DNA from: Desulfobacterales bacterium
Lineage (GTDB): Bacteria > Desulfobacterota > Desulfobacteria > Desulfobacterales > JAFDDL01
NCBI GenBank assembly: GCA_034003325.1
Contig: JAVEYW010000002.1
Coordinates: forward strand, 214,189-278,188
DNA: 64,000 bases
Direction: 5' to 3'
The translations under genes and the position numbers were made by a program. Positions within the stretch are counted from its first letter, which is position 1; each line of letters begins with the position of its first letter. The notes under the pieces are model-generated. The model saw only the letters and a program-made list of their open reading frames with translations. It searched no databases and had not been told where the DNA came from. This document shows positions 1,963-56,323 of the stretch, piece after piece.

Positions 1963-4935
1963 TCACATCTCATGGAAAACAGCACACTCGTTTCTCCGGG
2001 CATCCACCTTCAGGGTGAGCGGCCTGGCAGGATGAACATGCGTGACAAATAACAAGTCCCGATGCACCGATGGTGTGGTCAGTCGGGACCAGTCCAAGAC
2101 ATCGGTTTGATTGTCGGAAATCGTGATATAGGGGATGCCCAGGGTCGTGATATTATGAAAAAAATGAGACCCTTGAGAGGGATCTGCCCGCATCTGCGGA
2201 TGACTTGCCTCTATGATGGCCTGCACGCCGAAGATGTCTGTCCATTTCACCGGTATGCCGAGCCAACGATCCGCAGAACCCCACCGGCCCGGACCGATCA
2301 GCAGGTATTTCTTGTTTTCTGTTGTCAACAGATTGTTCAGATAACCGATTTCTTTGGCGATGTCCAGAGTCCGCGTGGGACTGAACACCTCGGGTTTAAC
2401 GAAAACAATGTCCGTAACGGCCTCTTTTTTGGCGTGACCGAGCGCATTTTTGGAATAACAAAAGGCGCGTTGTCTCTCTTCGGCCGACAGGCTGAGCGCT
2501 GAAAACTCGGCGCCGGCCGACATCGGCCGCATTTGCAGCACCGCAAAACTCGGCTTTCTGTCCGAATCATGAGAGAGGTTGACTGAAAATTCGATTTCCA
2601 CCGGGCACCCCATGCCCTCTTCGCCCAATTTCAAAATATCGTTCAACAAGCCCGGCAAGGGTATCAAATTATATTTAAGCACCTGTGAAAAGGTCAGCAC
2701 GCGTGCTCCGGGAATTTGGGTGGTCTCCTTGATTCGGTTTTCCTCGGGCGCATAGGTGCCGGCCAGCAGGCGCATCGGCAACTCGTCGGCCGCATCCGCA
2801 ATTTTGCGCCTGACCAGACTTTTTTCATCGTTATGGGTCAGCGAATGCGGAATTCCGTCCAGTTTTAGGGCGTAAAAATGCTGTTGCGCGTTTTCCAGCA
2901 CATCTTCCACCCGGGCGTGCTGGGGAAGATGCTTTGGAAATCTCGGGGAGAAGCGAAGCACTTTTTCCCCTTCCATCACGCTTTTTCCCAGTCCCAGGGC
3001 AATGGCGGCAATGCCGTCTTCCGCTTTTGCCGGCGAAAAGGGATAAAAGTTATGGGATTGCGCGACACCCGAAATGGCGGGGTAAAAATAGCCGCCATAA
3101 TGATCCCCTTCCATCCGCTGAACAATGACCGCCATTTTTTCTTCTTCGGTTCGGTGCCCCACTCGCCTTGAAAACGCTTTGGGCCCTTGAAAATAGGTGG
3201 AGGCGAACACCAGCTTGATGGCCGTAATCAGATGCGCCAGACGGATCTCCAGTATCGGATGATCGTTGGAAATCATATAGGTGCGATAAAGCCCGGCATA
3301 GGCAAAGGCGTGGGCGTCCTCCAACAGGCTTGAAGAGCGAATCGCCAACGGGTACGTAATCTGGCCCAGATATGCCCTTAAGTCCTGTTTGATCCATTCG
3401 GGAAATCGTCCCGCCATGAACCGCTCGGCCACGATTTCATCCGGAAGCGTTTCGTTGGAAAGGCGTTTTAACTTGTTTGTTTCCACAAACGAATCAAAGG
3501 CATCGGTGGTGATAACGAGTGTCTGGGGCACCAGAATATCCGCGGCCGAATATTTTTCGTATAAGGCGCTGCTGCTGTGCAACAGCTTGGAAACAAAGGC
3601 CAAGCCCCGGGCCTTTCCGCCCAGAGAGCCCTTTCCGATTTTGAAAAAATCCGTATCCGGATCAAAATCGTCCGCCTCGAAATCAGCCACTACTCCCTTT
3701 TGCCGCTGTTTGCGCCGGGCCCGGATAATGGACAGGACATAATGGCGATGGTTTTCCAAATCAAAGGAAAAATCGGCGTGCGTGATGGGCCGCAGCTTGC
3801 TGGCCAACATGATTTCGGTCCGGGCAAAAAGCCATCTGGAAAAATCATTATGATTGCAATGATGATAAAAGGACTCCGACGGAATGGTTCTAATACCCGC
3901 TTCAAGCGCCCGCAAATTGCCGGCGCGCGCGAGCTCCCGGCCGTCCGGCCATCTGAAAACAAATTCCCCGAAGCCAAGATGATCCAGGAAAAACGAGCGC
4001 ACCTCCTCATGCAGGGAAGGTGAGTTTTTATCGACAAAAACAGCCGGAATGGATTTAGCCTTGGACGCATTTTCCGGATCCGAGCTGGTGAGCAACAGGG
4101 GAATATCAAAGCGCTCCTGCTTGATGCGCTTGAGAAAGGTTACCCCGGCTGCATCATCTCTTTCACAATTTCTGGAAAACCGCACATCCGAGATAACGCC
4201 CAGCACATAGGGCTCAAATTGCTCATAGAGACTCACGGCCTCCTCATAACTGCCCGCCACAAGGATTTTCGGGCGCGCCCGCATTGTCAGCAACCGGTGC
4301 TCTTCATTCAAGCCCTCTTCAAGAACCGCCTGGGTCTGAGTGACCAGTTCCTTGTATAGCATCGGTAGCAGGGACGTGATGTAGTACGGGCTGTCCTCCA
4401 CGAAAAGAATCACGCGAATCCCGGCCGCCCGGGTGTCATGGGCCGCGTTCAGTCGATCTTCAGCACTTTTGATCAGCGCCACCAGAATATCCGTATTGCC
4501 GGACCAGGCAAAGATTCTATCAATCCCGGCCGGCAGCATGCCGTCCGGTGCGCACTCCCGGGCCGGCGGAATTCGATGGGTCATGATGATCACGGGAATT
4601 TCCGGGTCTTTTTCCTTGATCCGCTGACCCAAAGAAAAGGAGTCCATGCCCCAGACCCGGGGCATGGTGATCACCATGTCGAACTTTTTTTGATCGATTT
4701 CGCCAAGGGCCTCCTCGCCGGAGCCCACCCAGTGAAGCCGCGGCGGATGGCTGAGGTTTAAGCCCTCGTATTCATGAATGATGCGCTCATACAACCGGCA
4801 GTCTTCATCCATGATCCAGGCATCATACGGGGTTGAAACCAGCAGAATATCCGCGACCTTTTTTTGCATCAGATCATGAAAAATCCTGAAGCGCGGATCA
4901 AACTCTTCCGCAAAATAATCGACCTCGATCGTCAC
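1963..4935 (-). CDS. PEP/pyruvate-binding (PPDK_N, ATP-grasp) domain protein with two N-terminal receiver-like domains; no phosphohistidine or PEP-utilising domains evident
   Basis: 990-aa ORF. GKGSLGGKARGLAFV and AIRSSSLLEDAHAFAYAGLYRTY match the nucleotide-binding N-domain of PEP synthase/PPDK. Two CheY-like segments precede it (ADILLVSTPYD.., IRVILFVEDSP..GVISDVRF). Confidence 0.85.
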   Translation of the reverse strand: MTIEVDYFAEEFDPRFRIFHDLMQKKVADILLVSTPYDAWIMDEDCRLYERIIHEYEGLNLSHPPRLHWVGSGEEALGEIDQKKFDMVITMPRVWGMDSFSLGQRIKEKDPEIPVIIMTHRIPPARECAPDGMLPAGIDRIFAWSGNTDILVALIKSAEDRLNAAHDTRAAGIRVILFVEDSPYYITSLLPMLYKELVTQTQAVLEEGLNEEHRLLTMRARPKILVAGSYEEAVSLYEQFEPYVLGVISDVRFSRNCERDDAAGVTFLKRIKQERFDIPLLLTSSDPENASKAKSIPAVFVDKNSPSLHEEVRSFFLDHLGFGEFVFRWPDGRELARAGNLRALEAGIRTIPSESFYHHCNHNDFSRWLFARTEIMLASKLRPITHADFSFDLENHRHYVLSIIRARRKQRQKGVVADFEADDFDPDTDFFKIGKGSLGGKARGLAFVSKLLHSSSALYEKYSAADILVPQTLVITTDAFDSFVETNKLKRLSNETLPDEIVAERFMAGRFPEWIKQDLRAYLGQITYPLAIRSSSLLEDAHAFAYAGLYRTYMISNDHPILEIRLAHLITAIKLVFASTYFQGPKAFSRRVGHRTEEEKMAVIVQRMEGDHYGGYFYPAISGVAQSHNFYPFSPAKAEDGIAAIALGLGKSVMEGEKVLRFSPRFPKHLPQHARVEDVLENAQQHFYALKLDGIPHSLTHNDEKSLVRRKIADAADELPMRLLAGTYAPEENRIKETTQIPGARVLTFSQVLKYNLIPLPGLLNDILKLGEEGMGCPVEIEFSVNLSHDSDRKPSFAVLQMRPMSAGAEFSALSLSAEERQRAFCYSKNALGHAKKEAVTDIVFVKPEVFSPTRTLDIAKEIGYLNNLLTTENKKYLLIGPGRWGSADRWLGIPVKWTDIFGVQAIIEASHPQMRADPSQGSHFFHNITTLGIPYITISDNQTDVLDWSRLTTPSVHRDLLFVTHVHPARPLTLKVDARRNECAVFHEM

Positions 4936-9681: not shown

Positions 9682-11667
9682 CTACTTTTTGCAACAGTCA
9701 TGACAATGGGCGGGTGATGCCATGAGACAAAATGCCTCTCGATTGGTTTCGTTCCCGATAATGGCGATGAGATCATTGGGCATTAACACAAAATCGGCAT
9801 CCGGGTTGGGCTTGAGTTGCTCTTCTCGGGCCACACCGACCACCGAAGCCCCTGTTTTTTTGCGTATTTCGCTCCTACCTATCGACTGGTGTGCCATGGG
9901 GCTTTCCGGGGCTAACCGGACCCACTGCAAATCGAATTGTTGTTCAGCGCCTCGGAGTTGAGAGAGTACGCGATAGTCGTTATTCCGGCTGAATAAATGG
10001 GCATGAAATTCCTGCCGCACGGTATCGGTATGTCGCTGTATTTCTGTCGCCGTGACATTGAGCCGCAAAAGCGCCTGACGAGCCATTTCGAGGCTGGCTT
10101 CAAATTCCGGAAACACCACTTCGAACACGCCTAACTCCTTCAATAAGTTAGTGTAATCTGCCCCGGAAGTTCTTGCCACGATTTCGATTCGGTGATTCAG
10201 TCGCTTGGCGTGCTCTACGATCGATCTTGCGGTGACAAGTCCGGGAACGGTCAAAATCAAAAGGGAAGCCTTTTTGATTTCGGCCGCTTCCAGAACCGTT
10301 TCCTGGCCGGCGTCCCCGTAAACGGTCGCCATGCCGGCCTTTTTGGCTTGTTCGAAGCGTGGGTGATCCAGCTCGATGATCACAAATTTCAAACTTAAGC
10401 GCTTAAAGACCTGTGCGATTTGAAACCCGATGCGCCCACCGCCGGCGATCACGACATGACCGGCAAGGCCCGAATCGGGCATGTTGAAAGATTCGAGTGC
10501 TTCCCGGGGAAGCCATCGTTTTTTAAACGCATAGATTCGTGCTGTTTGACCTGAAATAAAGGGTGTTAGCACCATCGTAAAAATGGCGGAAGTCAGTATC
10601 AACGTGTACAGTTCGCTCTCAATGGAGTGGGTGGAAACCCCCACTCTTGCCAAAACGAAAGAGAACTCCCCAATTTGAAACAGGCCAAGTCCGACAGCCC
10701 ACGGAATTACATTTTTATATCTGAAAATTCGAACGACAACCGCAAAAATAAGGCCTTTTCCGATTCCCACCGCAAGCACCAACAGAAGAACTTGTCGAAA
10801 ATGATCGAAAAGAAACATCGGATTCAACAGCATGCCAACCGAAGTAAAAAACAACAATCCAAAAAGGTCGCGAAGCGGAATAATATCACTCAAGGCCTGG
10901 TGTCCATAGTCCGACTCGCTCAGAACCATGCCGGCGACAAAAGCGCCAAAAGCAAAAGAGAGCCCCACCATATGCGTCAGATAGCCGACACCCAGCCCGA
11001 TCGCCGTGATCGCGAGCAAGAAAAGCTCCCTTGAACCGATTTTGGCGATATGGGCCAACAGCCGCGGCAGCAACCGGGTTCCAAGCAAAATCATTCCGAA
11101 GATAAAGGCGGCCGCTTTTAGTGCCGCAAAACCGAGAACCGGCATCCCCACTGCGGGATTGTTGAGTTGAGGGAGGATGATCATCATCGGAACCACCGCC
11201 AAATCCTGCACGATAAGCATTCCGATCATCACCTTGCTCGAAAGGGTGCCCAACCATCCCTGGCTCATGAGTGTTTTGAGGATGACCATGGTACTGGAAA
11301 GAGAGATAAGTGCCCCCAACCATAATGACGATTTCCAGTCCCATCCCATCCATTGTCCAATGCCAAGGCCGAGTCCCATGGTCGAAACCAGCTGAATGGG
11401 GGTTCCTATCAGGGCCACCTGCTTCACCGGTTTGAGGTCTTTCAGGGAAAACTCGAGTCCGAGTGCGAACAAGAGAAGCGCAATGCCGATCTCGGATAGA
11501 AGCTCAATCTCGTGAATGTTTGAGATCGTAAGGCCGCCGGTATGCGGCCCCAAAACCACCCCTGCCACGATGTAGCCGATAATTAAGGGCTGACCGAGTC
11601 GTTTTAACACCAGTCCGCAAAAAAACGCAGCAACGATCAGCAGGATGATGTCGGTTGCAATGCCCAC
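9682..11667 (-). CDS. CPA2-family cation:proton antiporter with C-terminal TrkA-N/TrkA-C (RCK) domains (Kef-type)
   Basis: 661-aa ORF. A polytopic N-terminal half is followed by the Rossmann motif [15 protein letters not shown] and a TrkA-C-like end. It carries an unusual C-terminal HCHDCCKK tail. Confidence 0.9.
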
Positions 11668-42799: not shown

Positions 42800-43063
42800 G
42801 TGTTATTCGATTTCAAAAAAAATCGTGCATGGACGGACAATCTTCATATTTTAATGCAAATCGGGCTCACGATGGTCGGTTGCATACTGTTTTGTCTGTG
42901 GCTCGGTATCAAGCTGGACCAGTGGCTCGGCACGAAGGGCGTTTTTACTACGATTTTCATACTTCTGGGGATTGCCGGCGGCGGGGTTACCGTTTATCGG
43001 CAGATAGATGAGACGATGACATCATCTCAAAAGAAACCGGACGAACCGGACAACGAGGGGTAG
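42800..43063 (+). CDS. atpZ: AtpZ-type small membrane protein of ATP synthase operons
   Basis: 87 aa with two hydrophobic helices (ILMQIGLTMVGCILFCLWLG, VFTTIFILLGIAGGGV). It occupies the first position in the atp operon. GTG start per the ORF track. Confidence 0.7.
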   Translation: MLFDFKKNRAWTDNLHILMQIGLTMVGCILFCLWLGIKLDQWLGTKGVFTTIFILLGIAGGGVTVYRQIDETMTSSQKKPDEPDNEG

Positions 43064-43066
43064 CCG

Positions 43067-43447
43067 TTGGAATCGATTCGTCAAATACAGAAAAAGTATT
43101 GTTCCCGTGCCATTATCCTGGCGATAGTTTTAGGGTTGGGGTTTATTTTGGCCGGATATAAACCCATTGGCAAGGGGCTGATTCTCGGGACACTCTTCGG
43201 CATCCTCAATTTTATTCTGATGGGGGAAACCCTTCCCTGGCGGGTCGGCCAATCCAAAAATAAAGCCACGGCCATTTCAGCAGTTTCCATTCTTTTCCGA
43301 TACGCGTTGCTTGCCATACCGATATTTATCGGCGTCAGATTTCCCGAGTTCAATGTGGCGGCTGCGATAATCGGCATATTTATGGTTCAATTCGTTCTTC
43401 TGGGAGAACAAATTTTACGGTTGATCACACCATTGACTAAAAAATAA
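43067..43447 (+). CDS. atpI: ATP synthase protein I (AtpI)
   Basis: 126-aa hydrophobic ORF between atpZ and atpB. TTG start with GAGGGG 6 nt upstream. Confidence 0.7.
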   Translation: MESIRQIQKKYCSRAIILAIVLGLGFILAGYKPIGKGLILGTLFGILNFILMGETLPWRVGQSKNKATAISAVSILFRYALLAIPIFIGVRFPEFNVAAAIIGIFMVQFVLLGEQILRLITPLTKK

Positions 43448-43458
43448 GGGTAAGGGGC

Positions 43459-44133
43459 ATGGAGGAACTAGGCAAAATACATCAGCTGCTGATTTCCGTC
43501 GGTGGATATAAAATGACTTTCAATCTCGAGGTCATCATCATGACATGGATTGTCATTTTGGCGTTGGTTCTGTTCGGCTACATGACGACCCGAAAGCGCG
43601 GCATTCTGCCGAATCCGTTTCAGGTGGTAGGCGAGCTATTGGTTGCCAACCTGTACGGACTGGCGGACGATGCTTTGGACAAAAAACTGGCCCAAAAATA
43701 TGCGCCGATGATCTGTGCGCTATTTATGTTTCTGGTATGTTCCAACTGGTTGGGAATTATTCCCCATCTGGAGGAGCCGACCAAGGACTTGAATACGCCG
43801 TTGAGTCTCGGGTTGTTGGGCTTTGTGATTGCCCACTGGGCGGGTATTCGCGCCAAGGGATTGAAATCTTATACGAAAGCCTATTTCGAGCCGATGTTTT
43901 TCATGATGCCGCTGAATGTGATTGGTGAGCTGGCAAAGGTGGTATCGATCTCGTTCCGTCTTTTCGGAAATATCATGGGCGGTTCCATCATCATCCTGGT
44001 GGTTTCCTATCTGACTTACAGCGTGTTGCTGCCCCCGTTTTTGAACGCGTTTTTCGGCCTTTTTGTGGGTACGGTTCAGGCTTTTGTATTCACCATGCTA
44101 ACAATCGTCTACATTTCGGTTCAGGTTAATTAA
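43459..44133 (+). CDS. atpB: F0 ATP synthase subunit a
   Basis: 224 aa. Stator-Arg motif SFRLFGNIMGG. Polytopic. Confidence 0.95.
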   Translation: MEELGKIHQLLISVGGYKMTFNLEVIIMTWIVILALVLFGYMTTRKRGILPNPFQVVGELLVANLYGLADDALDKKLAQKYAPMICALFMFLVCSNWLGIIPHLEEPTKDLNTPLSLGLLGFVIAHWAGIRAKGLKSYTKAYFEPMFFMMPLNVIGELAKVVSISFRLFGNIMGGSIIILVVSYLTYSVLLPPFLNAFFGLFVGTVQAFVFTMLTIVYISVQVN

Positions 44134-44136
44134 AAA

Positions 44137-45108
44137 ATGATACAAGATATCCATGTCTGGGAAAGGCTGGCACAATTTATCGGCGCTGCCGCCGCCATGG
44201 GGTTTGGTGCCATGGGTGCCGCCATTGGTGAGGGATACGTGGCCTCCGAGGCCACCCTGGCGATTTCGAGGACTCCGGAATCCACCGGTGACATCTTTAA
44301 AACCATGCTGGTGGGGCAGGCGGTTGCCGAATCCGCCTCTATTTTTGCGTTGGTTGTTGCCATGCTGCTGCTGTTTACACCGGCGCCCACGGGCAATCTC
44401 ACCGTGGCCTTTTCGCTGCTGGCGGCCGGGCTGTGCATGGGGTTGGGCGCGATCGGCTCAGGGGTTGGGTCCGGATTTCCCGGAGCGCAAGCCTGCAAAG
44501 GCATCGGTCGCCAACCGGCGTCCATGAAGCGCTTGACCACCACCATGCTGGTAGGGTCGGCGGTATGTCAGACACCGGCCATTTTTGCATTGGTAACCTC
44601 CTTGATTTTACTCTTTTTTAATTTCAGCACGCATCCATTTTCCCCCACATGGGCCGCAATTCTCGGGGCGAGCCTGTCCATGGGGCTGGGCGCGATCGGA
44701 TCCGGCATCGGAGAGGGGCTGGTGGCCGGTGCGGGCTGTGAGGGGGTGGCCAGAAATCCATCTGAAGCCGGGCCCATTACCAACATTATGCTGCTTGGGC
44801 TTGCAGTGACCGAAACCACGGCCATTTACAGCCTTTTGATTAGTTTTATTCTGATATTCAAAGAGTTTCCGTCTACTACATTGCTTGCACCCAGCGCAGC
44901 GCTTCTGTCGGCAGGTATTTGTATGGGGCTTGGTGCGTTTGGTCCGGGCGTCGGGGAAGGCTTTGCGGGGCATAATGCGGTAAAATGGATTGCAAGAAAC
45001 GAGGATGCCCGTGGCACCCTGGTTCGAACCATGCTGGTGGGGCAGGCTGTAGCCGAGTCCACGGGCATTTATTCACTGGTTGTTGCATTGGTATTGATTT
45101 TTGTCATA
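44137..45108 (+). repeat. Four diverged tandem coding repeats of about 243 bp, one c-hairpin module each
   Basis: Approximate module boundaries are 44137-44382, 44383-44625, 44626-44868 and 44869-45108. Helix-2 DNA begins with ATGCTG in all four modules (ATGCTGGT in modules 1, 2 and 4; ATGCTGCT in module 3) but clearly diverges afterwards. Confidence 0.85.
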
Positions 45109-45111
45109 TAG
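44137..45111 (+). CDS. atpE: Fused tetra-hairpin F0 c subunit: four tandem c-subunit modules in one polypeptide
   Basis: 324 aa. Contains four copies of the pattern Gly-rich helix 1, R-x-P/N loop, then helix 2 (MLVGQAVAES / MLVGSAVCQT / MLLGLAVTET / MLVGQAVAES). The carboxylate is present at E65, E226 and E307, and is Gln at position 145. Confidence 0.9.
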   Translation: MIQDIHVWERLAQFIGAAAAMGFGAMGAAIGEGYVASEATLAISRTPESTGDIFKTMLVGQAVAESASIFALVVAMLLLFTPAPTGNLTVAFSLLAAGLCMGLGAIGSGVGSGFPGAQACKGIGRQPASMKRLTTTMLVGSAVCQTPAIFALVTSLILLFFNFSTHPFSPTWAAILGASLSMGLGAIGSGIGEGLVAGAGCEGVARNPSEAGPITNIMLLGLAVTETTAIYSLLISFILIFKEFPSTTLLAPSAALLSAGICMGLGAFGPGVGEGFAGHNAVKWIARNEDARGTLVRTMLVGQAVAESTGIYSLVVALVLIFVI

Positions 45112-45167
45112 GCTGTCGGCGGGGTTGCCGAACGGCGAAATTTAAAAAATTCTAGGAGGATCACATC

Positions 45168-45416
45168 ATGGCGATTGAAGGCGTGGACATTGTAAAAGCG
45201 GCGGCTTTTTTGGGCGCCGGTATTTCCATGGGACTGGGTGCCATCGGGCCGGGGGTTGGTGAAGGCATGGCAGCGGCAAAGGCATGCGAGGCCATTGGAA
45301 AAAATCCGAAGGAAGCAGGGCTGTTGACCCGGACCATGCTGGTAGGTCAGGCGGTATCGGAGTCCACGGGCATTTATGCGCTCGTTATTTCCCTGTTGCT
45401 CCTGTTTGTCGTCTAA
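45168..45416 (+). CDS. atpE: F0 ATP synthase subunit c (single hairpin)
   Basis: 82 aa: GAIGPGVGEG..GKNPKEA..MLVGQAVSESTGIYALV. Strong SD AGGAGG 7 nt upstream. Confidence 0.97.
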   Translation: MAIEGVDIVKAAAFLGAGISMGLGAIGPGVGEGMAAAKACEAIGKNPKEAGLLTRTMLVGQAVSESTGIYALVISLLLLFVV

Positions 45417-45452: not shown

Positions 45453-45908
45453 ATGGAAATCGTAAGCAACATTGCCCTGATCAGTATCAATGAAACCCTG
45501 ATTGTTCAGGTTGTTTCCTTTCTCATACTGGTGTTTCTTTTAAATCGGATCATGTTTCGGCCGCTTCGGCGGACCGTTGAGGAACGAGGCGCGTTGATCG
45601 ATCGAATTCGTAAGGATATCGATCAGGCGGAGCAGGCGCTGGAAACCGTATCGGCGGAGACGAAAAAAAGAGAATCGGCTATCAAGGCGGACGCTTTTGA
45701 GGTTCAGGCGAGTTTGGAAGCGAGCGCGCAGCAGGAAGCCGGCGCCGTGCTGAAAGCCACGAGCAGGGAAATGGACGCCATTCGGAAAAAGGCCGAAGAC
45801 GATGTGACGAAAATGGTCGACGCCGCCAAAGCCAATATCACCGAGGAGGCCGAGCGGCTGACCGTTTCCATCATGGAAAAGATGTTGGATCGGAGGCTGG
45901 CATCATGA
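45453..45908 (+). CDS. atpF2: F0 ATP synthase subunit b'
   Basis: 151 aa with an N-terminal TM helix (LIVQVVSFLILVFLLNRIMF) followed by a long charged helix. Confidence 0.85.
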   Translation: MEIVSNIALISINETLIVQVVSFLILVFLLNRIMFRPLRRTVEERGALIDRIRKDIDQAEQALETVSAETKKRESAIKADAFEVQASLEASAQQEAGAVLKATSREMDAIRKKAEDDVTKMVDAAKANITEEAERLTVSIMEKMLDRRLAS

Positions 45909-46492
45909 AGTCTAATCCCTATTCGCGTTATTCGAAATGTGTTGTCGCCTTGTTGGTGCTCGGCCTTCTTTTATGGGGCCAGACCGCACTGGCGTCTGAA
46001 GGCGCCGCCAGTTGGCGGGGAACCTACGATACGGCAATGAAATGGCTGAACTTTTTTATTTTGGCCTTTTTGATTGTGAAATTCGGCCGGACCCCACTGA
46101 AGAATTTTCTGGAAGGGCAAAAGGAAAATGTGGCGGTTGAAATCAAGTCGCTTGAAAATGAAAAGGCGGCGGTTCAGTCAAAGGTCGAGGAAGCCCGAAC
46201 CCTCTTAGCGCAAAGCGATATTCGGGCGGCTGAAATAAAAGAGAAAATCATTCGTCAGGCGGAGGCTGAAAAAGAACGGATGATTCAAGAGGCCATGGCG
46301 CAAAGTCGCTTGATGCTCGAAAGCGCCAAACGGCGCGTAGAGAGCAAAATCCATTTTGCCAGAGCCTCCTTTATGGCTGAACTGGTCGACATGGCTGTTG
46401 CCGCTGCCATGGAGAAGCTTCCGACGGAGATAACGCCCGAAGACGATCGTAAATATCAGGATCTTTTCATGGCGCAAGTCGAGTCCATCTGA
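45905..46492 (+). CDS. atpF: F0 ATP synthase subunit b
   Basis: 195 aa with the same architecture as b'. ATGA overlap with b'. Confidence 0.85.
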   Translation: MKSNPYSRYSKCVVALLVLGLLLWGQTALASEGAASWRGTYDTAMKWLNFFILAFLIVKFGRTPLKNFLEGQKENVAVEIKSLENEKAAVQSKVEEARTLLAQSDIRAAEIKEKIIRQAEAEKERMIQEAMAQSRLMLESAKRRVESKIHFARASFMAELVDMAVAAAMEKLPTEITPEDDRKYQDLFMAQVESI

Positions 46493-49154: not shown

Positions 49155-49690
49155 ATTTTCTTCCCCCTATAAAAACCATCTGTTTTAATTGATAGAAAAA
49201 TAAACACGCCGCCGTTGTTGTCAATCCGAAGTCACCGGGTGCAATAAAAGCCAGTCCCCTTTACACTTTCTGAAAATCACCGTACCCGGGTGGCAAACCC
49301 GGAAAGAAACGAATGGATAACCGCTTTCCGATTTGGGACTAACCTTTCTTTTCATATACCATAACCGCGCGTTAGATTCAGGAAAAACGGCTTCGAATGA
49401 CTTTTTGCTTGACAACTATCTAAATTTGAAAGAGATTTAACGAAAAAGCCCGTTAAACAGAAGCGGCAATACGGTAGTGTGAGCGATATGACTTGCTATC
49501 GGTTGCACAGCACATGACCATCGGCGGCGGCCCGCGTTAACTGACGTCCCGATTGTCTTCCTTCGCCCTAATTTCATCGCAGCACAAGCACCCATAAACA
49601 GGACGCATGATCGTTGTGTAGCACCCTATGAACAGGCCGATGCACCATGGATTATTCTTTCACCAATTAAACCATAAGGGGGGAGAGCCT

Positions 49691-51613
49691 ATGAGACGCA
49701 AGTCCATGAACCCGTTTTGCCGGCGGAAACGACCTGCCGGCCATTTATTGTGGGGCCTTGCCGTGATGTTCTTATTGGTTTCACCGGCGGCGGGGTTTCA
49801 GTTTAATGCCGGAGACATGCAGGGCAGCCTGGACACCACGCTTTCCTATGGCCTAAGTTGGCGTGTGGCGGAGAGGGACGAGGAGATTGTCGGTCTGGCC
49901 AACGGTGGCAAGGCATACTCCGTCAATGGGGATGACGGCAATCTTAATTTCGGAAGAGAAATTTTCAGCAATGCCGTAAAAGCGACTTCGGAGTTGGACC
50001 TTAAGTACAAAAACGTTGGTGTGTTCGTCAGAGGCTCCGGGTTTTACGATTTTGAGTACAAGGACGGCAACAGGGATCACATAGATCTGACCGACGAGGC
50101 CTTGGACCTGGTCGGTTCGGATGTGCGACTGCTGGATGCCTATTTCTCCGCAGGCTTTGATTTGCTGGGCAGACCCGTTGAGTTTCGAATCGGCGAGCAG
50201 CTCGTCAGTTGGGGAGAGAGCACCTTTTTTCAGAACAGCATCAACACCATCAACCCCGTGGATGTCAGCGCCATTCGTTTGCCCGGCGCGGAGCTTAAAG
50301 AAGCGCTGCTGCCCGAAGGCATGATTTACGCCGCCATCGGCTTGAGCGAGATGATCTCGGTAGAGGGCTTTTATCTCTATGACTGGGATAACACGGATAT
50401 TGACCCGCCCGGCTCCTATTTCAGCACCAGCGATTTTGCCGGTGACGGCGGCAGCCGCGTGATGCTGGGGTGGGGAAGGGTGTGGGAGTTCGGGACGAAT
50501 TTGGGACCGCTGGGATTTGATCCGGATTTTCTGGCGGTCGGCAGAGCGGCCGATCAGGATGCGGACGATGACGGCCAGTTCGGCGTCGCACTTCGTTTGT
50601 TTACACCGATGCTGGCGGATGCGGAGTTCGGCTTTTACTTTATGAATTATCATAGCCGGGTTCCCGTGATCAGTGCTCAAACCGGAACGGTGGCCGGGGT
50701 CGACTTATCCTCCTCAGCCGCATTCGGTGCCAGGGTCGCCAATTTGACGGCGGCGGGTTTCCCCTACGCCACGGCTGTTTCCACCGCCGCAAGCCTGTCT
50801 GTCGATGCCTATTCCCAAACGGCCCGGTATTTTCTGGAGTATCCGGAAGATATTCAACTCTTCGGCGTCAGCTTCAACACGGATCTTGGCACCTCCGGCA
50901 TCGCGTTGCAGGGGGAAGTCTCCCATCGCCGGGATGTTCCGTTGCAGGTGGATGATATTGAGTTGCTGCTTGCGGCCCTCTCACCCATCGGATTTAACCC
51001 CGCCTATAAAGATAACCAACTGAGAGTGTTCGGTGCCGACGAGACCATTCACGGGTATATCGAAAAGGACATCACCCAGGTGCAAGCCACTGCAACCAAG
51101 GCTTTCGGGCCGACCCTTCGGGCGAACACCTTTATTTTGGTGGGAGAAGTCGGCTGGACGCATGTTCACAACATGCCCGATAAGGACGAGCTGCGGCTGG
51201 AATCTTCCGGCACCTACACCAGCGGAAACGCTTCTCAAAGTATTCTGCCGGGAACAGACCCCACGAAACCCTTCGGCGGCGCGCACGCCGGAATTGCCAG
51301 CGAGCCCTCCGACAACTTTGCGGATCAGGATTCCTGGGGATATCGAATCGCGGGCCGGCTGGAGTACAGCAACGCCGTTGGTCCCGTCGGCTTGACGCCG
51401 CATTTTGCCTGGCAGCACGATGTGCAGGGAAACAGCCCCGGTCCGGGCGGCAATTTCCTTGAGGGGAGAAAAGCGGTTACCTTGGGACTGACCGCCGGTT
51501 ATCTGACGAACCTGACCATGGATATCAGTTATACGTGCTTTTTCGGCGGCAGCCGATACAACCTGATCAATGACCGCGATTTTATCGGGGCCAATATCAA
51601 GTACTCATTCTGA
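49691..51613 (+). CDS. DUF1302-family predicted outer-membrane beta-barrel protein
   Basis: Signal peptide, then FQFNAGDMQGSLDTTLSYGLSWRV and a C-terminal aromatic residue (..IKYSF). The ORF track starts at 49628; ATG 49691 has the SD GGGGGGAGAG. Confidence 0.8.
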   Translation: MRRKSMNPFCRRKRPAGHLLWGLAVMFLLVSPAAGFQFNAGDMQGSLDTTLSYGLSWRVAERDEEIVGLANGGKAYSVNGDDGNLNFGREIFSNAVKATSELDLKYKNVGVFVRGSGFYDFEYKDGNRDHIDLTDEALDLVGSDVRLLDAYFSAGFDLLGRPVEFRIGEQLVSWGESTFFQNSINTINPVDVSAIRLPGAELKEALLPEGMIYAAIGLSEMISVEGFYLYDWDNTDIDPPGSYFSTSDFAGDGGSRVMLGWGRVWEFGTNLGPLGFDPDFLAVGRAADQDADDDGQFGVALRLFTPMLADAEFGFYFMNYHSRVPVISAQTGTVAGVDLSSSAAFGARVANLTAAGFPYATAVSTAASLSVDAYSQTARYFLEYPEDIQLFGVSFNTDLGTSGIALQGEVSHRRDVPLQVDDIELLLAALSPIGFNPAYKDNQLRVFGADETIHGYIEKDITQVQATATKAFGPTLRANTFILVGEVGWTHVHNMPDKDELRLESSGTYTSGNASQSILPGTDPTKPFGGAHAGIASEPSDNFADQDSWGYRIAGRLEYSNAVGPVGLTPHFAWQHDVQGNSPGPGGNFLEGRKAVTLGLTAGYLTNLTMDISYTCFFGGSRYNLINDRDFIGANIKYSF

Positions 51614-51630
51614 AAAAAGGGGAGGATGTT

Positions 51631-52992
51631 ATGGTTAAAAATGTTTTTATTTGTTTCAGTCTTTCCCTGCTGCTCGCTGTCGGCGCCTCGGTGGCCGTGG
51701 GCAAGCTGTCTATCGAGGAGATTGATCGGCTGGGCAAGGAGTTGACCCCGCTGGGGGGTGAAATGGCGGGAAATCAAGACGGCACGATTCCGCCCTGGAC
51801 CGGCGGCATCACGCAGCCACCCGAAGGGTATACGATCGGCATGCATCATCCCGACCCCTATGCAGCGGATACCGTTCTTTTTACGATTACCGCCGCCAAT
51901 ATGAATCAGTATAAAGACAAGCTCACGCCCGGTCACCAGGCCATGCTGCAACTCTATGACACCTTTAAACTCAACGTTTATCCGACCCACCGCAGCGCGG
52001 CCGTCCCTCAGCGCATCTATGAGGCCACAAAAAAAGTGGCGGCCACGGCCGAGATCGTCAACAACGGGGACGGCGTTCAAGGCACCGTGATCGGCATTCC
52101 CTTTCCCATTCCCAAACAAGGGGTTGAAGTCATCTGGAATCATTTGGTTCGGTACCGGGGAGAGATCGCACTCAGACTGTTCGCGCAGGCCGCGCCGACC
52201 CGAAACGGCCAATACACGCTGGTTCAATTTGAAGATGAGTTCGATTTGCTGTATTGCCATGTGGGGATGACCGAAGAAGGGCTCAATAATCGGATTGCTT
52301 ATTTCAAGCAGACGGTTACCGCACCGGCCCGACTCGCCGGGGGCATTCTTCTTGTGTATGAAACCCTCAACCAGGTCAAAGAACCCCGAAAAGCCTGGCT
52401 TTACAACCCGGGCCAACGCCGTGTCCGGCGGGCGCCCAATGTGGCCTACGACAATCCCGGAACCGCTTCGGACGGCGTTCGGACCAGCGATCAATTCGAC
52501 ATGTTCAATGGTGCTCCGGACCGGTATAATTGGCAATTGGTCGGAAAAAAAGAGATCTATGTGCCGTATAATTCCTATCAGCTTCACAGTGACAAGCTGA
52601 AATACAAGGATATTTTGACCCCATTGCACATCAACCCCGATTATTGCCGCTACGAACTTCACCGGGTGTGGGTGGTGGACGCCACGCTAAAGGACGGTGC
52701 CCGTCATCTTTATAAACGCCGCACCTTTTATGTGGACGAAGATTCCTGGCAGGTGCTCTTGGTCGATATCTATGATAACCGGGATCAGTTGTGGCGGGTT
52801 TCGGAAGGCCATGTCATCAATTATTACGAAAAACCCACCCTCTGGACGACACTTGAAGTGCACACGGATCTTCAATCGGGGCGCTATCTGGCCATCGGCC
52901 TGGACAATGAAAGCAGTATGTACGACTTTAATATTCAGCGAACGGCTGAAGATTATGTGCCTGCCGCATTGAGGCGGGAAGGCAAACGCTGA
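51631..52992 (+). CDS. DUF1329-family periplasmic/lipoprotein-sorting-like protein
   Basis: 453 aa. Signal peptide. GTIPPWTGG is the characteristic N-terminal motif as I recall it. It is always paired with DUF1302. Confidence 0.8.
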   Translation: MVKNVFICFSLSLLLAVGASVAVGKLSIEEIDRLGKELTPLGGEMAGNQDGTIPPWTGGITQPPEGYTIGMHHPDPYAADTVLFTITAANMNQYKDKLTPGHQAMLQLYDTFKLNVYPTHRSAAVPQRIYEATKKVAATAEIVNNGDGVQGTVIGIPFPIPKQGVEVIWNHLVRYRGEIALRLFAQAAPTRNGQYTLVQFEDEFDLLYCHVGMTEEGLNNRIAYFKQTVTAPARLAGGILLVYETLNQVKEPRKAWLYNPGQRRVRRAPNVAYDNPGTASDGVRTSDQFDMFNGAPDRYNWQLVGKKEIYVPYNSYQLHSDKLKYKDILTPLHINPDYCRYELHRVWVVDATLKDGARHLYKRRTFYVDEDSWQVLLVDIYDNRDQLWRVSEGHVINYYEKPTLWTTLEVHTDLQSGRYLAIGLDNESSMYDFNIQRTAEDYVPAALRREGKR

Positions 52993-53998: not shown

Positions 53999-56323
53999 AT
54001 GCATTTTTCCTTTTCCGTTTCGCGCCTTGAAACGTTCATTTTTGCTCATCGCCCATGGGTCATCGGCTTTTTTCTTGCCGTCACCCTGGTAATGGCCTAC
54101 TTTGCCTTTCAGCTGCGGGTGGATGCCGGATTCAGCAAACTTTTGCCGCTGCAACACGAATATATGAAAACCTACATGATGCATCGGCAGGAATTCGGCG
54201 GAGCGAACCGGGTGCTCATCGCATGCATGGTAAAAAAAGGCGATATTTTCACTCAGTCGTTTTTTGCGCTTTTTAAAGACGCTACCGATGAAGTCTTTTT
54301 TATTCCGGGCGTCGATCGGGCGCAGGTGTATTCCATCTTTACGCCCAATGTCCGGTTTACGGAGGTGGTGGAAGACGGCATTTCGGGCGGAAATGTGGTT
54401 CCTGATGATTTTCGCCCCACTCCGGAAGGGTTGGCCACCGTCCGAAAGAATATGCTCAAGGCCAATATCGTGGGAAGGCTGGTCGCCAATGATTTTTCGG
54501 GCGCCATTATCTCCGCCCAGCTTCTTGAGATCAATCCGAACACGGGCGAGAAGCTCAATTACATCGATGTCGCGCACGAGTTGGAGGAAAAGCTGCGAGC
54601 CAAATTCGAAGCCCGCGACGAGAATGTCACGGTTCACATCATCGGGTTTGCCAAGGTGATTGGGGATATATCCGACGGCGCCGGCCGCGTGGTGCTCTTT
54701 TTTGCTGTCAGCTTCATCATCACCGCCCTGTTGGTGTTTTTCTATACGCAATCCGTTAAACTGACGATCATTCCCCTGGCGGCATCCTTGATGGCCGTGG
54801 TGTGGCAGCTTGGCATGGTAACGGTGTTGGGTTTCGGCATGGATCCCATGGGAATCCTGGTGCCGTTTCTTATCTTTGCCATCGGCGTCAGCCACGGGGT
54901 TCAAATGGTCGGCGCCGTCCAGGCCGAGCTTTTTGACGGGGTCACCGGCTTTGATGCAGCGCGTAAAAGCTTTCGGCGGCTTCTGGTGCCGGGCGGCATC
55001 GCCCTGGCCAGCGATACGCTTGGGTTTATCACCATTTTGTTGATCACGGTTCAGATTATTCAGGAACTTGCCATTACGGCTAGCCTGGGCGTGGCGGCGA
55101 TCATCTTTACCAACCTGATACTGATTCCGGTGCTGCTTTCCTATCTTACCTTTAACGCCCGGTACATCGAGAAATTGGCGGCGCGCACTGCGCATTTGCG
55201 GCTGTTATGGCGCGGCTTGGCCCATGTCACCCATCCGCAGGTGACGCTGCTCGTGCTGGTGATTGCAGGAGGGTTTCTTGTTTATGGTCTTTTTAAGGCC
55301 AACAGCGTTCAAATCGGAGATCTTCACAGCGGTGTTCCGGAGCTGCGGGCCAATTCGCAATATAACCTCGACAGCCGGATTATCAGTGAAAAATTCTCCA
55401 TCGGCGTGGACATGATTTCGGTGATTGTGGAAACCGCCCCGGAAGGCTGCATTGATTATGACATCATGACCCTGATCGATCGATTTGCCTGGCATATGCA
55501 AAATGTGCCCGGCGTTCAATCGGTCGTATCTTTGCCGCAACTTGCCAAAACGATCAACGCCGGGTGGAACGAGGGCAGCATGAAATGGCGCATTCTGCCG
55601 CGCAATCGGGATGTGATGGTTCAGGCGGTCGCCTATGTGCCCACGAGCAGCGGCCTGTTGAACACGGACGGCTCCGTGATGCCGGTCATGATCTTCACCC
55701 GGGACCACCGGGCTCAAACCATTTCCGGAATCGTGTCCGCGGTTAAATCCTTTCGGACTCAACATGGCACGGAAAAAGTACGGTTCAGACTTGCGACCGG
55801 CAATGTCGGTGTCATGGCGGCCACCAATGAAGAGGTTGCGGCCTCTCAGTTTCCGATCCTGATGTACCTTTTTTCCGCTATTATTTTACTGTGCCTGGTG
55901 ACCTTTCGGTCGGTTCGGGCGACGCTGTGTATTGTTCTACCGCTGGGGCTGGTTTCCATTCTGGCTTATGCGCTGATGAGCGCGCTTGAGATCGGGCTGA
56001 AGGTGTCCACGCTGCCCGTGGTGGCCCTGGGTGTCGGCATCGGTGTGGATTACGGCATCTACATTTACAACCGCCTGGAAAGCATTCTGATAACCGGGGA
56101 ACCCCTTGAGGAGGCCTTTCATCGCACCCTTCAAATTACGGGCGTCGGGGTGCTCTTCACCGGCCTGACGTTGGGCATCGGCGTGGCCACCTGGATTTTT
56201 TCCCCGCTGAAATTTCAGGCGGATATGGGCATTCTTTTGACCTTCATGTTCCTGGTCAATATGTTGGGCGCCATTTTTCTGTTGCCGGCCCTGGCCCGCG
56301 TACTGTTGCCGTCAAAACAATAA
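53999..56323 (+). CDS. RND-superfamily transporter (MMPL/HpnN-like)
   Basis: 774 aa, organised as two blocks of one TM helix, a periplasmic loop, then five TM helices. Confidence 0.85.
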   Translation: MHFSFSVSRLETFIFAHRPWVIGFFLAVTLVMAYFAFQLRVDAGFSKLLPLQHEYMKTYMMHRQEFGGANRVLIACMVKKGDIFTQSFFALFKDATDEVFFIPGVDRAQVYSIFTPNVRFTEVVEDGISGGNVVPDDFRPTPEGLATVRKNMLKANIVGRLVANDFSGAIISAQLLEINPNTGEKLNYIDVAHELEEKLRAKFEARDENVTVHIIGFAKVIGDISDGAGRVVLFFAVSFIITALLVFFYTQSVKLTIIPLAASLMAVVWQLGMVTVLGFGMDPMGILVPFLIFAIGVSHGVQMVGAVQAELFDGVTGFDAARKSFRRLLVPGGIALASDTLGFITILLITVQIIQELAITASLGVAAIIFTNLILIPVLLSYLTFNARYIEKLAARTAHLRLLWRGLAHVTHPQVTLLVLVIAGGFLVYGLFKANSVQIGDLHSGVPELRANSQYNLDSRIISEKFSIGVDMISVIVETAPEGCIDYDIMTLIDRFAWHMQNVPGVQSVVSLPQLAKTINAGWNEGSMKWRILPRNRDVMVQAVAYVPTSSGLLNTDGSVMPVMIFTRDHRAQTISGIVSAVKSFRTQHGTEKVRFRLATGNVGVMAATNEEVAASQFPILMYLFSAIILLCLVTFRSVRATLCIVLPLGLVSILAYALMSALEIGLKVSTLPVVALGVGIGVDYGIYIYNRLESILITGEPLEEAFHRTLQITGVGVLFTGLTLGIGVATWIFSPLKFQADMGILLTFMFLVNMLGAIFLLPALARVLLPSKQ

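Follow-up and report, generated by a model that had tools for sequence, protein, structure and literature searches.

The Fo gene cluster and its fused c subunit

The window, which is the whole 64,000-nucleotide stretch of DNA analysed, contains an Fo gene cluster in the order atpZ-atpI-a-c4-monomeric c-b′-b (Table 1), and this synteny is kept across 80 related loci. The TAA stop codon of atpB occupies positions 44131-44133, and the ATG of c4 follows 3 bases downstream. A clpB gene, recognized from its domains, lies 3′ of the subunit b gene on the minus strand. The presence of subunit a (PF00119), subunits b and b′ (PF00430) and AtpI identifies the context as an F-type Fo. A V-type ATPase identity was rejected for the same reason, and an N-type ATPase identity was rejected because the N-ATPase order beta-epsilon-X-X-a-c is absent. 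No Walker motifs of F1 alpha or beta were found within the window, and such motifs are present in one of the 80 related loci.

Table 1. Positions of the Fo genes, the c4 hairpins and their diagnostic residues in the window.
Feature	Positions	Strand	Evidence or residues
atpZ-like gene (ATPase_gene1), first gene of the cluster	42800-43063	+	PF09527, 2.8e-17; syntenic in 74/80 related loci
atpI (ATP synthase I chain, assembly factor)	43067-43447	+	PF03899, 3e-10; syntenic in 75/80 loci
atpB, Fo stator subunit a	43459-44133	+	PF00119, 5.2e-49; SFRLFGN arginine motif read in the sequence
Fused four-hairpin c subunit c4, 324 aa, NCBI MDX9785760.1	44137-45111	+	four PF00137 stretches
Hairpin 1, live	44137-44376	+	G-E32-G (E32 44230-44232); AVA-E65-SASIF (E65 44329-44331)
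Hairpin 1 outward ligands toward hairpin 2, degenerate	A67 44335-44337; F70 44344-44346	+	
Hairpin 2, predicted ion-blind	44383-44625	+	residues 83-163
Hairpin 2, helix 1, G-S112-G	44470-44472	+	TCC, codon check
Hairpin 2, helix 2, AVC-Q145-TPAIF	44569-44571	+	CAG, codon check
Hairpin 2, further residues T146, P147 and F150	P147 44575-44577; F150 44584-44586	+	
Hairpin 3	44626-44868	+	G-E193-G (44713-44715); AVT-E226-TTAIY (44812-44814)
Hairpin 4, live, complete two-carboxylate Na+ motif	44869-45108	+	G-E274-G (44956-44958); AVA-E307-STGIY (45055-45057)
AGGAGG Shine-Dalgarno sequence	45154-45159	+	8 nt 5′ of the monomeric c start codon
Monomeric single-hairpin c, 82 aa	45168-45416	+	PF00137, 1e-18
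Fo subunit b′	45453-45908	+	PF00430, 6.5e-11; syntenic in 76/80 loci
Fo subunit b, last gene of the cluster	45905-46492	+	PF00430, 2.1e-14

The c4 protein matched the PF00137 (ATP-synt_C) profile in four stretches with a score of 207.9 bits (curated cut-off, 24; E-value, 1.8e-62). Its AF2 model (pLDDT 93.5, pTM 0.90) consists of eight helices that form four hairpins, and the glycine-rich GxGxGxG motif of the inner helix was found in all four modules. The helix-2 carboxylate is present in hairpins 1, 3 and 4 (E65, E226 and E307) and is replaced by Q145 in hairpin 2; residue 145 is also the sole break within any transmembrane helix of the model. The sequence-only reading had reported AVCQTPAIF with Gln145 (CAG) in module 2, AVAES, AVTET and AVAES in modules 1, 3 and 4, and Ser112 in module 2 where the other modules and the monomer have GEG. 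Module alignment reproduced these readings, and the codon check agreed for Gln145. These results indicate that c4 as a whole is a member of the ATP-synt_C family and that hairpin 2 is a non-canonical module. The monomeric c, which reads GEG and AVSESTGIY, aligns with A. woodii c2, I. tartaricus c and F. nucleatum c. Its motif (E / E-S-T-x-x-Y) was found as E|EST..Y in all 77 complete monomers of the related loci.

Ligand shells of the four hairpins

In Na+-binding c rings, every site sits between two neighbouring hairpins. The hairpin that carries the helix-2 Glu also gives the helix-1 Glu or Gln, and the outer helix of the preceding hairpin gives Ser/Thr (+1), Thr (+2, via water) and Tyr (+5). 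In the c11 ring of Fusobacterium nucleatum, Ser66 and Val63 belong to the adjacent subunit, Tyr70 and Ser66 are hydrogen-bonded to Glu65, and Thr67 holds a water molecule (PMC3692424). The ProAD rule requires [S/T]-[S/T/Q]-x-x-Y in the previous hairpin (PMC11738941, supplement). We assigned the neighbour contacts in c4 from this published ligand rule together with the covariation in the family. Counted over related sequences with kinship uncorrected, a full shell in hairpin i-1 accompanied a live hairpin i in 29 of 41 cases and a dead hairpin i in 1 of 199, and the same covariation gave no comparable positive link of the shell to hairpin i or i+1. The last hairpin has ST..Y in 66 of 68 signatures. 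An incomplete shell precedes 12 of the 41 live hairpins beyond the first, hairpin 3 of c4 among them, so the ligand rule has exceptions.

In c4, the site between hairpins 1 and 2 has lost each of its four specific contributing residues, with Glu replaced by S112, Glu by Q145, Thr by A67 and Tyr by F70. Two co-located substitutions had been noted earlier; both are real, and the site is dismantled at four positions when A67 and F70 are added. The two-carboxylate Na+ motif is present in the monomer, in hairpin 4, to which hairpin 3 would contribute T227, T228 and Y231, and at hairpin 1, to which S, T and Y would come from hairpin 4 or from a monomer; the corresponding residues that hairpin 4 offers outward are S308, T309 and Y312. 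The motif is incomplete at hairpin 3 and absent in hairpin 2. Per c4, these assignments predict two complete Na+ sites (hairpins 1 and 4), one carboxylate-only site (hairpin 3) and one dead site (hairpin 2). The previous count of three translocation sites per c4 holds in regards to the carboxylates and does not extend to the Thr/Tyr shell of hairpin 3.

The site of hairpin 3 receives T146, P147 and F150 from hairpin 2, and it lacks its Na+ shell owing to Pro147 and Phe150. Position 226 is E in 11 and Q in 78 of the 89 c4 orthologues. The hairpin 3 site is thus lost too in most orthologues. A midpoint-rooted neighbour-joining tree of c4 placed the forms with a live hairpin 3 as a basal grade to a large clade in which hairpin 3 is dead, and hairpin 3 is dead in the outgroup clades as well.

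Conservation of hairpin 2 and probable composition of the ring

Gln145 was found in all 89 distinct c4 orthologues, and none carries Glu at this position. Position 112 is never acidic (67 Ser, 16 Ala and 6 Gly), which indicates that the conserved feature is the lack of a carboxylate rather than Ser itself; of the two residues whose conservation had been proposed as a check, only Gln145 is therefore strict. Other residues of hairpins 1 and 2 were counted in the same orthologues (E65, 89/89; A67, 82/89; F70, 89/89; T146, 87/89; P147, 85/89; F150, 85/89), and in each of the 38 close c4 proteins hairpin 2 has the S|..CQTP reading or one that differs slightly. Across Desulfobacterota genomes, all 78 complete fused c genes, with 2-5 hairpins, have a live hairpin 1 and Gln in hairpin 2, and six-hairpin metagenome proteins likewise have Gln at hairpin 2. 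The mean pairwise identities of c4 hairpins 1-4 were 0.75, 0.73, 0.72 and 0.70, respectively. The corresponding dN/dS values, calculated over related sequences with kinship uncorrected and with dS near saturation in many pairs, were 0.19, 0.21, 0.22 and 0.24. The purifying selection on hairpin 2, which keeps its length and its GxGxGxG packing motif, is thus similar to that on the live hairpins. The invariant Gln, the small neutral helix-1 residue and the purifying selection together support the earlier proposal of a selected silent position rather than random decay, and we consider it likely that hairpin 2 of c4 is an ion-blind slot of the rotor that selection has conserved.

Two other explanations of the residues in hairpin 2 were considered. 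The Gln and Ser could reflect faulty sequencing or assembly, or the early pseudogene decay of a redundant module; changes of single bases (GAG to CAG) would be enough, and frameshift-split c4 genes occur in two related long-read MAG loci (L055 and L063). However, the 975-nt c4 gene is identical in three more assemblies from other samples (SRR25572339, ERZ27247324 and SRR8449815), the open reading frame is intact with a confident fold prediction, and the invariance and constraint described above are at odds with decay, so that this explanation can practically be dismissed. It is also very improbable that hairpin 2, though it lacks a carboxylate, holds or transports an ion, such as Na+ coordinated by the oxygens of Gln145, Ser112 and Thr146. 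Gln, Ser and Thr oxygens do coordinate Na+ in other proteins, and Thr146 is kept in nearly all orthologues, but the neighbouring ligands are lost too (A67 and F70), the stator Arg would meet no charge, and the equivalent replacement of Glu by Gln in the second hairpin of c1 is described as abolishing the binding of both H+ and Na+ in Clostridium aceticum and Acetobacterium woodii (PMC7911925).

In regards to the partner subunit, the fused cN gene adjoins a monomer gene within the conserved atpZ-I-a-cN-c-b′-b synteny. The c4 gene has no Shine-Dalgarno sequence; a Shine-Dalgarno core precedes the monomer gene in 75 of 79 loci and the fused gene in 1 of 77, and the median duplex energies were -10.3 and -4.0 kcal/mol for the monomer and fused genes, respectively. 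The identity across taxa was 76-94% for the monomer, as against 52-70% for the orthologous fused hairpins. The strong Shine-Dalgarno sequence at the monomer gene and its lack at c4 suggest that the ring is a hybrid in which c4 is present in low copy number. We infer the ring composition, the c4 copy number and the coupling ion as follows. Judged from the order of the genes, their translation signals and the complementary motifs of their products, c4 would be produced about as abundantly as subunit a, of which the complex has one copy. The monomeric c, with its strong translation, would outnumber c4, and the two would assemble into a heteromeric ring of the F/V hybrid type, as in A. woodii. Hairpin 2 would keep one slot of this c ring and present an uncharged Gln to the stator Arg in subunit a, neither loading nor releasing an ion as it passes. 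Since this slot would carry no ion, the number of rotor sites per c4 copy would equal the number of slots minus one. The ions carried per turn would consequently be fewer than expected from the ring size. The size of the effect on the ion/ATP ratio hinges on the number of c4 copies per ring; with the few copies that the translation signals suggest, the Na+/ATP ratio would be modestly lowered.

The main competing explanation for the ring is that c4 forms a homomeric ring (e.g., 3 x c4, with 12 slots and 9 carboxylates), or a ring used under alternative conditions, and that the monomer builds a separate conventional ring; in a homomeric c4 ring the dead hairpin would take away one quarter of the sites. 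The ST..Y of hairpin 4 could complete hairpin 1 of a second c4 no less readily than it would a monomer, and the four-hairpin genes of Dependentiae, which have no adjacent monomer gene, make homomeric multi-hairpin rings plausible in principle. We nevertheless regard this arrangement as unlikely here, because a monomer gene is adjacent in every Desulfobacterota case, because c4, which lacks a Shine-Dalgarno sequence, is placed so that its translation can be coupled to that of the single-copy a, while the monomer gene has AGGAGG of its own, and because the fused subunit of A. woodii, the nearest system that has been characterised, is a minority component, accounting for 1 of 10 subunits (PMC9171764). 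A location of c4 outside the rotor, as a scaffold, an assembly nucleus or in another membrane role, would fit the faster evolution of the fused hairpins relative to the monomer and the probably low expression of c4. This location is quite improbable given that the live hairpins retain complementary and complete Na+ motifs, among them ligands with a meaningful role only beside another c hairpin of a ring, that the place in the operon between a and c is fixed, and that c1 of A. woodii provides a precedent by sitting in the ring.

Comparison with known rotor subunits and a possible graded series

The best match of c4 in the PDB, both in sequence (6.7e-29) and in fold, was A. woodii c1 (4BEM chain J), in which hairpin 1 reads AETSGIF and is live and hairpin 2 reads AQTTGIY and is dead. 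The analogy with c1 drawn in the sequence-only reading therefore stands, with the same live-then-dead order and Gln in place of Glu in hairpin 2. In A. woodii and C. aceticum, as in the window, the fused c gene directly follows atpB and is followed by one or more single-hairpin c genes, and the single-hairpin partner of A. woodii has the Na+ motif, as does the monomer in the window. The c4 subunit thus shares with the c1 class the fused hairpins in an F-type operon, the Glu-to-Gln hairpin and a co-encoded monomer with a Na+ motif, and departs from it in the V-type c architecture of exactly two hairpins with one site, as c4 has four hairpins with three carboxylates and its relatives combine 2-6 hairpins and 1-3 carboxylates. 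Hairpin 1 of c1 also has Phe at +5, whereas its dead hairpin retains T-T-x-x-Y for the next site; in helix 1, A. woodii has Gln in place of the Glu that completes the two-carboxylate motif of c4. The A. woodii ring is composed of nine c2/3 subunits and one c1 (PMC9171764), and the enzyme uses about 3.3 Na+/ATP (PMC5662883). In a neighbour-joining tree of the hairpins, which are short (about 70 residues) and gave no support values, the A. woodii hairpins paired together outside the Desulfobacterota classes, which suggests that the Desulfobacterota fusion may have arisen independently of that in A. woodii.

The F. nucleatum c11 ring (PDB 3ZK1) shares Glu32, Glu65, Ser66, Thr67 and Tyr70 with the monomeric c and with hairpin 4, and its motif is functionally matched at the site of hairpin 1; unlike the ring proposed here, it is homomeric and built of single hairpins with all sites live. 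After c1, the next fold matches were V/A-type proteolipids, with a marginal sequence similarity for NtpK (5e-6). These proteolipids (eukaryotic V-ATPase c, Enterococcus hirae NtpK and archaeal two- and three-hairpin c) resemble c4 in having more hairpins than carboxylates, but they are housed in V- or A-type enzymes, whereas the c4 gene is clustered with those for a, b, b′ and AtpI of an F-type Fo. A review covers archaeal c subunits with fewer sites, built from 1, 2, 3 or 13 hairpins (PMC9171764).

A parallel four-hairpin family was found in Candidatus Dependentiae/Babeliales. These c subunits (312-323 aa), which are known from genes alone, usually have S|.QTP..F in hairpin 2 and follow the live-dead-live-live pattern of c4 in the window. 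They are only 27-33% identical to c4, their sites have a single carboxylate (Q, L or S in helix 1) with Asp at the last site, and their gene lies beside that of subunit a.

The 78 complete fused genes of Desulfobacterota, with live (L) and dead (d) hairpins written in order, comprise 31 LddL, 16 LdL, 11 Lddd, 9 LdLL, 5 Ldddd, 3 LdddL and 3 others. We propose tentatively that c4 belongs to a so far undescribed series in which F-type rotor subunits of Desulfobacterota are graded, with 2-6 fused hairpins, 1-3 carboxylates, a live hairpin 1, a dead hairpin 2 and a partner monomer with a Na+ motif. Provided that these subunits are placed in the ring, duplication and silencing of hairpins would tune the ion/ATP ratio in each species. 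If this series holds, the LdLL form in the window would be either a silencing intermediate or a mixed Na+/H+ rotor. If the fused subunits are part of the ring, Lddd, Ldddd and the six-hairpin rotors with one Glu would carry 3-5 consecutive ion-blind slots past the stator. To our knowledge, no characterised rotary ATPase has such ion-blind runs, and models of torque generation are silent on them.

Full-text literature searches gave no description of a fused or multi-hairpin F-type c subunit in Desulfobacterota or sulfate reducers, though an earlier catalogue may list some of the genes, and the literature searched contained no biochemistry of c4 or its orthologues. A 2026 mBio paper mentions multiple atpE copies in Desulfatiglandales and nothing further.

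The number of ion sites per rotor turn sets the number of ions needed per ATP, and thereby the minimum membrane potential for ATP synthesis in anaerobes living near the thermodynamic limit. Among bacterial F-type enzymes, that of A. woodii is the only one known to us in which a silenced rotor position has been characterised structurally. The c4 subunit would carry this principle over to a fusion of four hairpins that selection has fixed in widespread sulfate-reducing and hydrocarbon-degrading Desulfobacterota. Cultured relatives are Desulfatibacillum alkenivorans DSM 16219 and Desulfosarcina alkanivorans PL12, both with an LddL c4, Desulfonema magnum with a c3, Desulfatitalea alkaliphila with an Ldddd c5, and Desulfacinum species. 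Related proteins are annotated in databases as plain “ATP synthase F0 subunit C”, so bioenergetic models may use the wrong stoichiometry.

Identity of the second hairpin of the fused c subunit

The window carries a compact Fo cluster, followed after b by clpB on the opposite strand, and no F1 alpha or beta gene was found within it. The fused four-hairpin c subunit (c4) has 324 aa with four separate Pfam ATP-synt_C matches (PF00137, 1.8e-62), and it is exactly NCBI MDX9785760.1, whose source is a Desulfobacterales MAG. The sequence-only reading had described hairpin 2 as lacking both ion-binding carboxylates. Alignment of the five modules and reading of the codons confirmed all of its sequence statements: hairpin 2 (residues 83–163) has Ser112 (TCC) and Gln145 (CAG), and the equivalent positions are Glu/Glu in hairpin 1 (E32/E65), hairpin 3 (E193/E226), hairpin 4 (E274/E307), and the single-hairpin c (the monomer). 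The AF2 model of c4, computed from the orthologue alignment (pLDDT 93.5, pTM 0.90), contains eight helices forming four hairpins. Its membrane helices are interrupted only at residue 145, near the conserved Pro147, and in this model the outer helix of hairpin 2 may be kinked differently from those of the live hairpins, i.e., those with the helix-2 carboxylate.

Features of the window discussed in the text
Feature	Position	Strand	Remark
990-aa protein	1963-4935	-	receiver and PPDK_N matches
Kef-type antiporter	9682-11667	-	661 aa
atpZ-like	42800-43063		Fo cluster
atpI	43067-43447		Fo cluster
Subunit a (atpB)	43459-44133		Fo cluster
Region upstream of c4	44117-44136		no SD
Fused c4	44137-45111	+	Fo cluster; ATG at 44137
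Hairpin 2 of c4	44383-44625		dead
Ser112 codon	44470-44472		TCC
Gln145 codon	44569-44571		CAG
Q145-T146-P147	44569-44577		helix break at residue 145
P147-F150	44575-44586		offered to hairpin 3
E193 to E226	44713-44814		hairpin 3 carboxylates
AGGAGG	45154-45159		upstream of monomer
Single-hairpin c	45168-45416		Fo cluster; 82 aa
b'	45453-45908		Fo cluster
b	45905-46492		Fo cluster
DUF1302/DUF1329 pair	49628-52992	+	661 and 453 aa
MMPL-family transporter	53999-56323		

Conservation of the silent hairpin

Identical copies of the 975-nt c4 gene were found in three more assemblies from other samples. A search of 5.8 billion proteins gave close c4 orthologues of about 70% identity together with five-hairpin (400–406 aa) and six-hairpin (481–490 aa) relatives, and all 38 c4 proteins from this search had Ser at 112 and Gln at 145 in a QT[PS] motif. 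Scanning a single genome for each species yielded 80 related loci, all from Desulfobacterota, including the cultured strains Desulfatibacillum alkenivorans, Desulfosarcina alkanivorans, Desulfonema magnum, Desulfatitalea alkaliphila, Desulfacinum infernum, D. hydrothermale, and Desulfoferrobacter suflitae. The gene order atpZ-atpI-a-cN-c-b'-b, where cN is a fused c with N hairpins, is kept in essentially all of them. The alignment of orthologues proposed in the sequence-only reading supported its claim for Gln145, which is retained in 89 of 89 distinct c4 sequences. The claim for Ser112 held in part: an acidic residue never occurs there, but Ser itself is found in 67 sequences, with Ala in 16 and Gly in 6.

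In all 78 complete fused genes (2–5 hairpins), hairpin 1 is live (L) and hairpin 2 is dead (d). The patterns were LddL (31 genes), LdL (16), Lddd (11), LdLL, as in the window (9), Ldddd (5), LdddL (3), and others (3). The mean pairwise identity of hairpin 2 was 0.73 against 0.70–0.75 for the other hairpins, and its Nei-Gojobori dN/dS (63 pairs) was 0.21 against 0.19–0.24, both calculated on related sequences without phylogenetic correction. Read from these values, the constraint on hairpin 2 is the same as that on the live hairpins, which rules out decay of the hairpin, while a sequencing error is ruled out by the identical DNA in the three other assemblies and the invariant Gln145. The earlier preference for selected silence over random decay is thus borne out by Gln145, by the uniformly dead hairpin 2, and by the dN/dS value.

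In two long-read MAGs (L055, 5950-7742; L063, 5878-7256) the c4 gene is split across two or three reading frames; these are probably assembly indel errors, and they could be pseudogenes. The Desulfobacterales MAG chromosome CP070694.1 carries two fused-c4 clusters of differing pattern (Lddd in L035 and LddL in L043); upstream of the second, the sole match to subunit a was short and C-terminal, and atpZ and atpI gave no match.

Sites shared between neighbouring hairpins

In Na+-binding c rings each site lies between two neighbouring hairpins. In the F. nucleatum c11 structure, one hairpin contributes Glu32 and Glu65, and its neighbour contributes Val63 O and Ser66; Glu65 is hydrogen-bonded by Tyr70 and Ser66, and the coordinating water is held by Thr67 (PMC3692424). 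For fused subunits, the ProAD rule defines a Na+ hairpin by its own [Q/E]...[E] and by [S/T]-[S/T/Q]-x-x-Y in helix 2 of the previous hairpin (PMC11738941 supplement). We tested this rule on 68 distinct signatures of the fused-c family. The full shell of Ser/Thr, Thr, and Tyr ligands was present in hairpin i-1 in 29 of 41 cases when hairpin i was live and in 1 of 199 when it was dead, and neither hairpin i nor hairpin i+1 showed a comparable positive association. In 66 of the 68 signatures, S-T-x-x-Y is present in the last hairpin, whose ligands must serve the subunit that follows.

Hairpin 1 of c4 reads E65-S66-A67-S-I-F70, so that the Thr and Tyr due to serve the site of hairpin 2 are Ala and Phe; A67 is found in 82 of 89 and F70 in 89 of 89 c4 orthologues. 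At the sequence level, the silent site of hairpin 2 is marked by four substitutions on two hairpins (S112, Q145, A67, and F70), which is further evidence of design and not accident. Hairpin 3 gives T-T-x-x-Y to hairpin 4 and hairpin 4 gives S-T-x-x-Y to whatever comes next, so both of these sites are complete.

In regards to hairpin 3, both carboxylates are kept, but hairpin 2 offers it T146-P147-x-x-F150, and by the published rule it is therefore not a Na+ site. The earlier count of three translocation sites per c4 thus stands for carboxylate-bearing hairpins and not for Na+ sites; the site of hairpin 3 may consist of carboxylates only and be of H+-type or low affinity. Among the 89 c4 orthologues, 78 have Gln in hairpin 3, usually with Gly in helix 1. 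In the 11 that keep Glu, the hairpin-2 shell is full in 4 (L007, L008, P0097, and L024) and degenerate in 7, including the window. In the c4 tree, forms with a live hairpin 3 make up a grade below a large clade with a dead hairpin 3, and the outgroups are also dead at this hairpin. The numbers of Glu-keepers and full shells give the appearance of silencing in steps, or of a rotor of mixed Na+/H+ type.

Ring composition and related subunits

The monomer gene of the window has a strong Shine-Dalgarno (SD) site, AGGAGG. An SD core lies upstream of the monomeric c in 75 of 79 loci and of the fused cN in 1 of 77, with median anti-SD duplex energies of -10.3 and -4.0 kcal/mol, respectively. The fused gene starts 0–4 nt past the atpB stop (TAA then ATG in the window). 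All 77 complete monomers of the related loci carry Glu in helix 1 and EST..Y in helix 2. Monomer identity is 76–94% against 52–70% for orthologous fused hairpins. The SD contrast suggests that the two genes are translated at very different rates and that the fused subunit is present in few copies; together with the conservation of the monomer, it would put the amount of fused subunit close to that of the single-copy a, with the monomer in excess. The ring would then be a hybrid of one or a few c4 copies and monomers, whereas a ring made solely of c4 would have one silent slot in every four. In the hybrid ring, the window enzyme would have one site fewer per ring, as in A. woodii, and one atypical site at hairpin 3. 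All of these functional statements are based on sequence, conservation, and analogy.

The best PDB match of c4 by sequence (6.7e-29) and fold was the A. woodii F-type c-ring subunit c1 (4BEM chain J). Solved chains reached a TMq of 0.45 or less, covering at most about half the model. A. woodii c1 shares the logic of c4: its hairpin 1 (AETSGIF) is live with Phe at +5, and its hairpin 2 (AQTTGIY) is dead but retains Thr/Tyr for the next site. Its gene also lies between atpB and single-hairpin c genes (PMC7911925), and nine single-hairpin subunits plus one c1 form the ring (PMC9171764), giving about 3.3 Na+/ATP (PMC5662883). Unlike A. woodii and I. tartaricus, which have a Gln-Glu motif, the monomer and live hairpins here have the two-carboxylate Na+ motif of F. 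nucleatum. A crude hairpin tree gave four positional classes for Desulfobacterota (first, internal-dead, penultimate, and last) and a monomer class, and the two A. woodii hairpins paired together, which suggests that the fusions were independent.

V-type c, archaeal c, and A. woodii c1 are established precedents for silent hairpins in fused proteolipids. The searched literature, outside which lay the A. woodii structure paper and the Brandt & Muller 2015 review, the gene catalogue most likely to include such genes, contained no description of an F-type c of four hairpins, one of them invariantly silent, or of the Desulfobacterota series (2–6 hairpins, 1–3 carboxylates). ProAD mentions multi-hairpin c only generically, with logos for one and two hairpins (PMC11738941).

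The five- and six-hairpin relatives often keep one carboxylate, in hairpin 1 only (P0002-P0120; L044, L045, L050, L054, L057, and L059-L061), and their extra hairpins belong to the internal-dead class, repeating the dead hairpin 2 type in tandem. If these proteins enter the ring, ion-blind slots would occur four or five in a row. A profile search run exhaustively over 1.84 billion representatives gave a second, distant four-hairpin family (P0178-P0270, P0239; 312–323 aa, 27–33% identical to c4), most members of which have Ser in helix 1 and.QTP..F in helix 2 of a dead hairpin 2 and carboxylates in the remaining three hairpins. Those members that are named come from Candidatus Dependentiae/Babeliales and are annotated as "hypothetical proteins". 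In one such genome (L084, 5178-6939) the gene follows subunit a, no monomer gene lies nearby, and the two downstream ORFs had no Pfam match. The same search gave giant c proteins with helix-2 Glu in every hairpin: P0130 (1139 aa, 15 hairpins), P0149 (968 aa, 13), P0243 (784 aa, 8), P0197 (631 aa, 8), and P0177 (524 aa, 7).

Elsewhere in the window, the Kef-type cation/proton antiporter (Na_H_Exchanger, TrkA-N, and TrkA-C domains) may be relevant to Na+/H+ balance beside a predicted Na+-coupled ATP synthase. The adjoining DUF1302 and DUF1329 genes, followed by the MMPL-family transporter, form a conserved outer-membrane/lipoprotein pairing with no assigned function. The 990-aa protein is unusual in its domains, since a PPDK_N domain (pyruvate phosphate dikinase nucleotide-binding) occurs together with a match to a response-regulator receiver.
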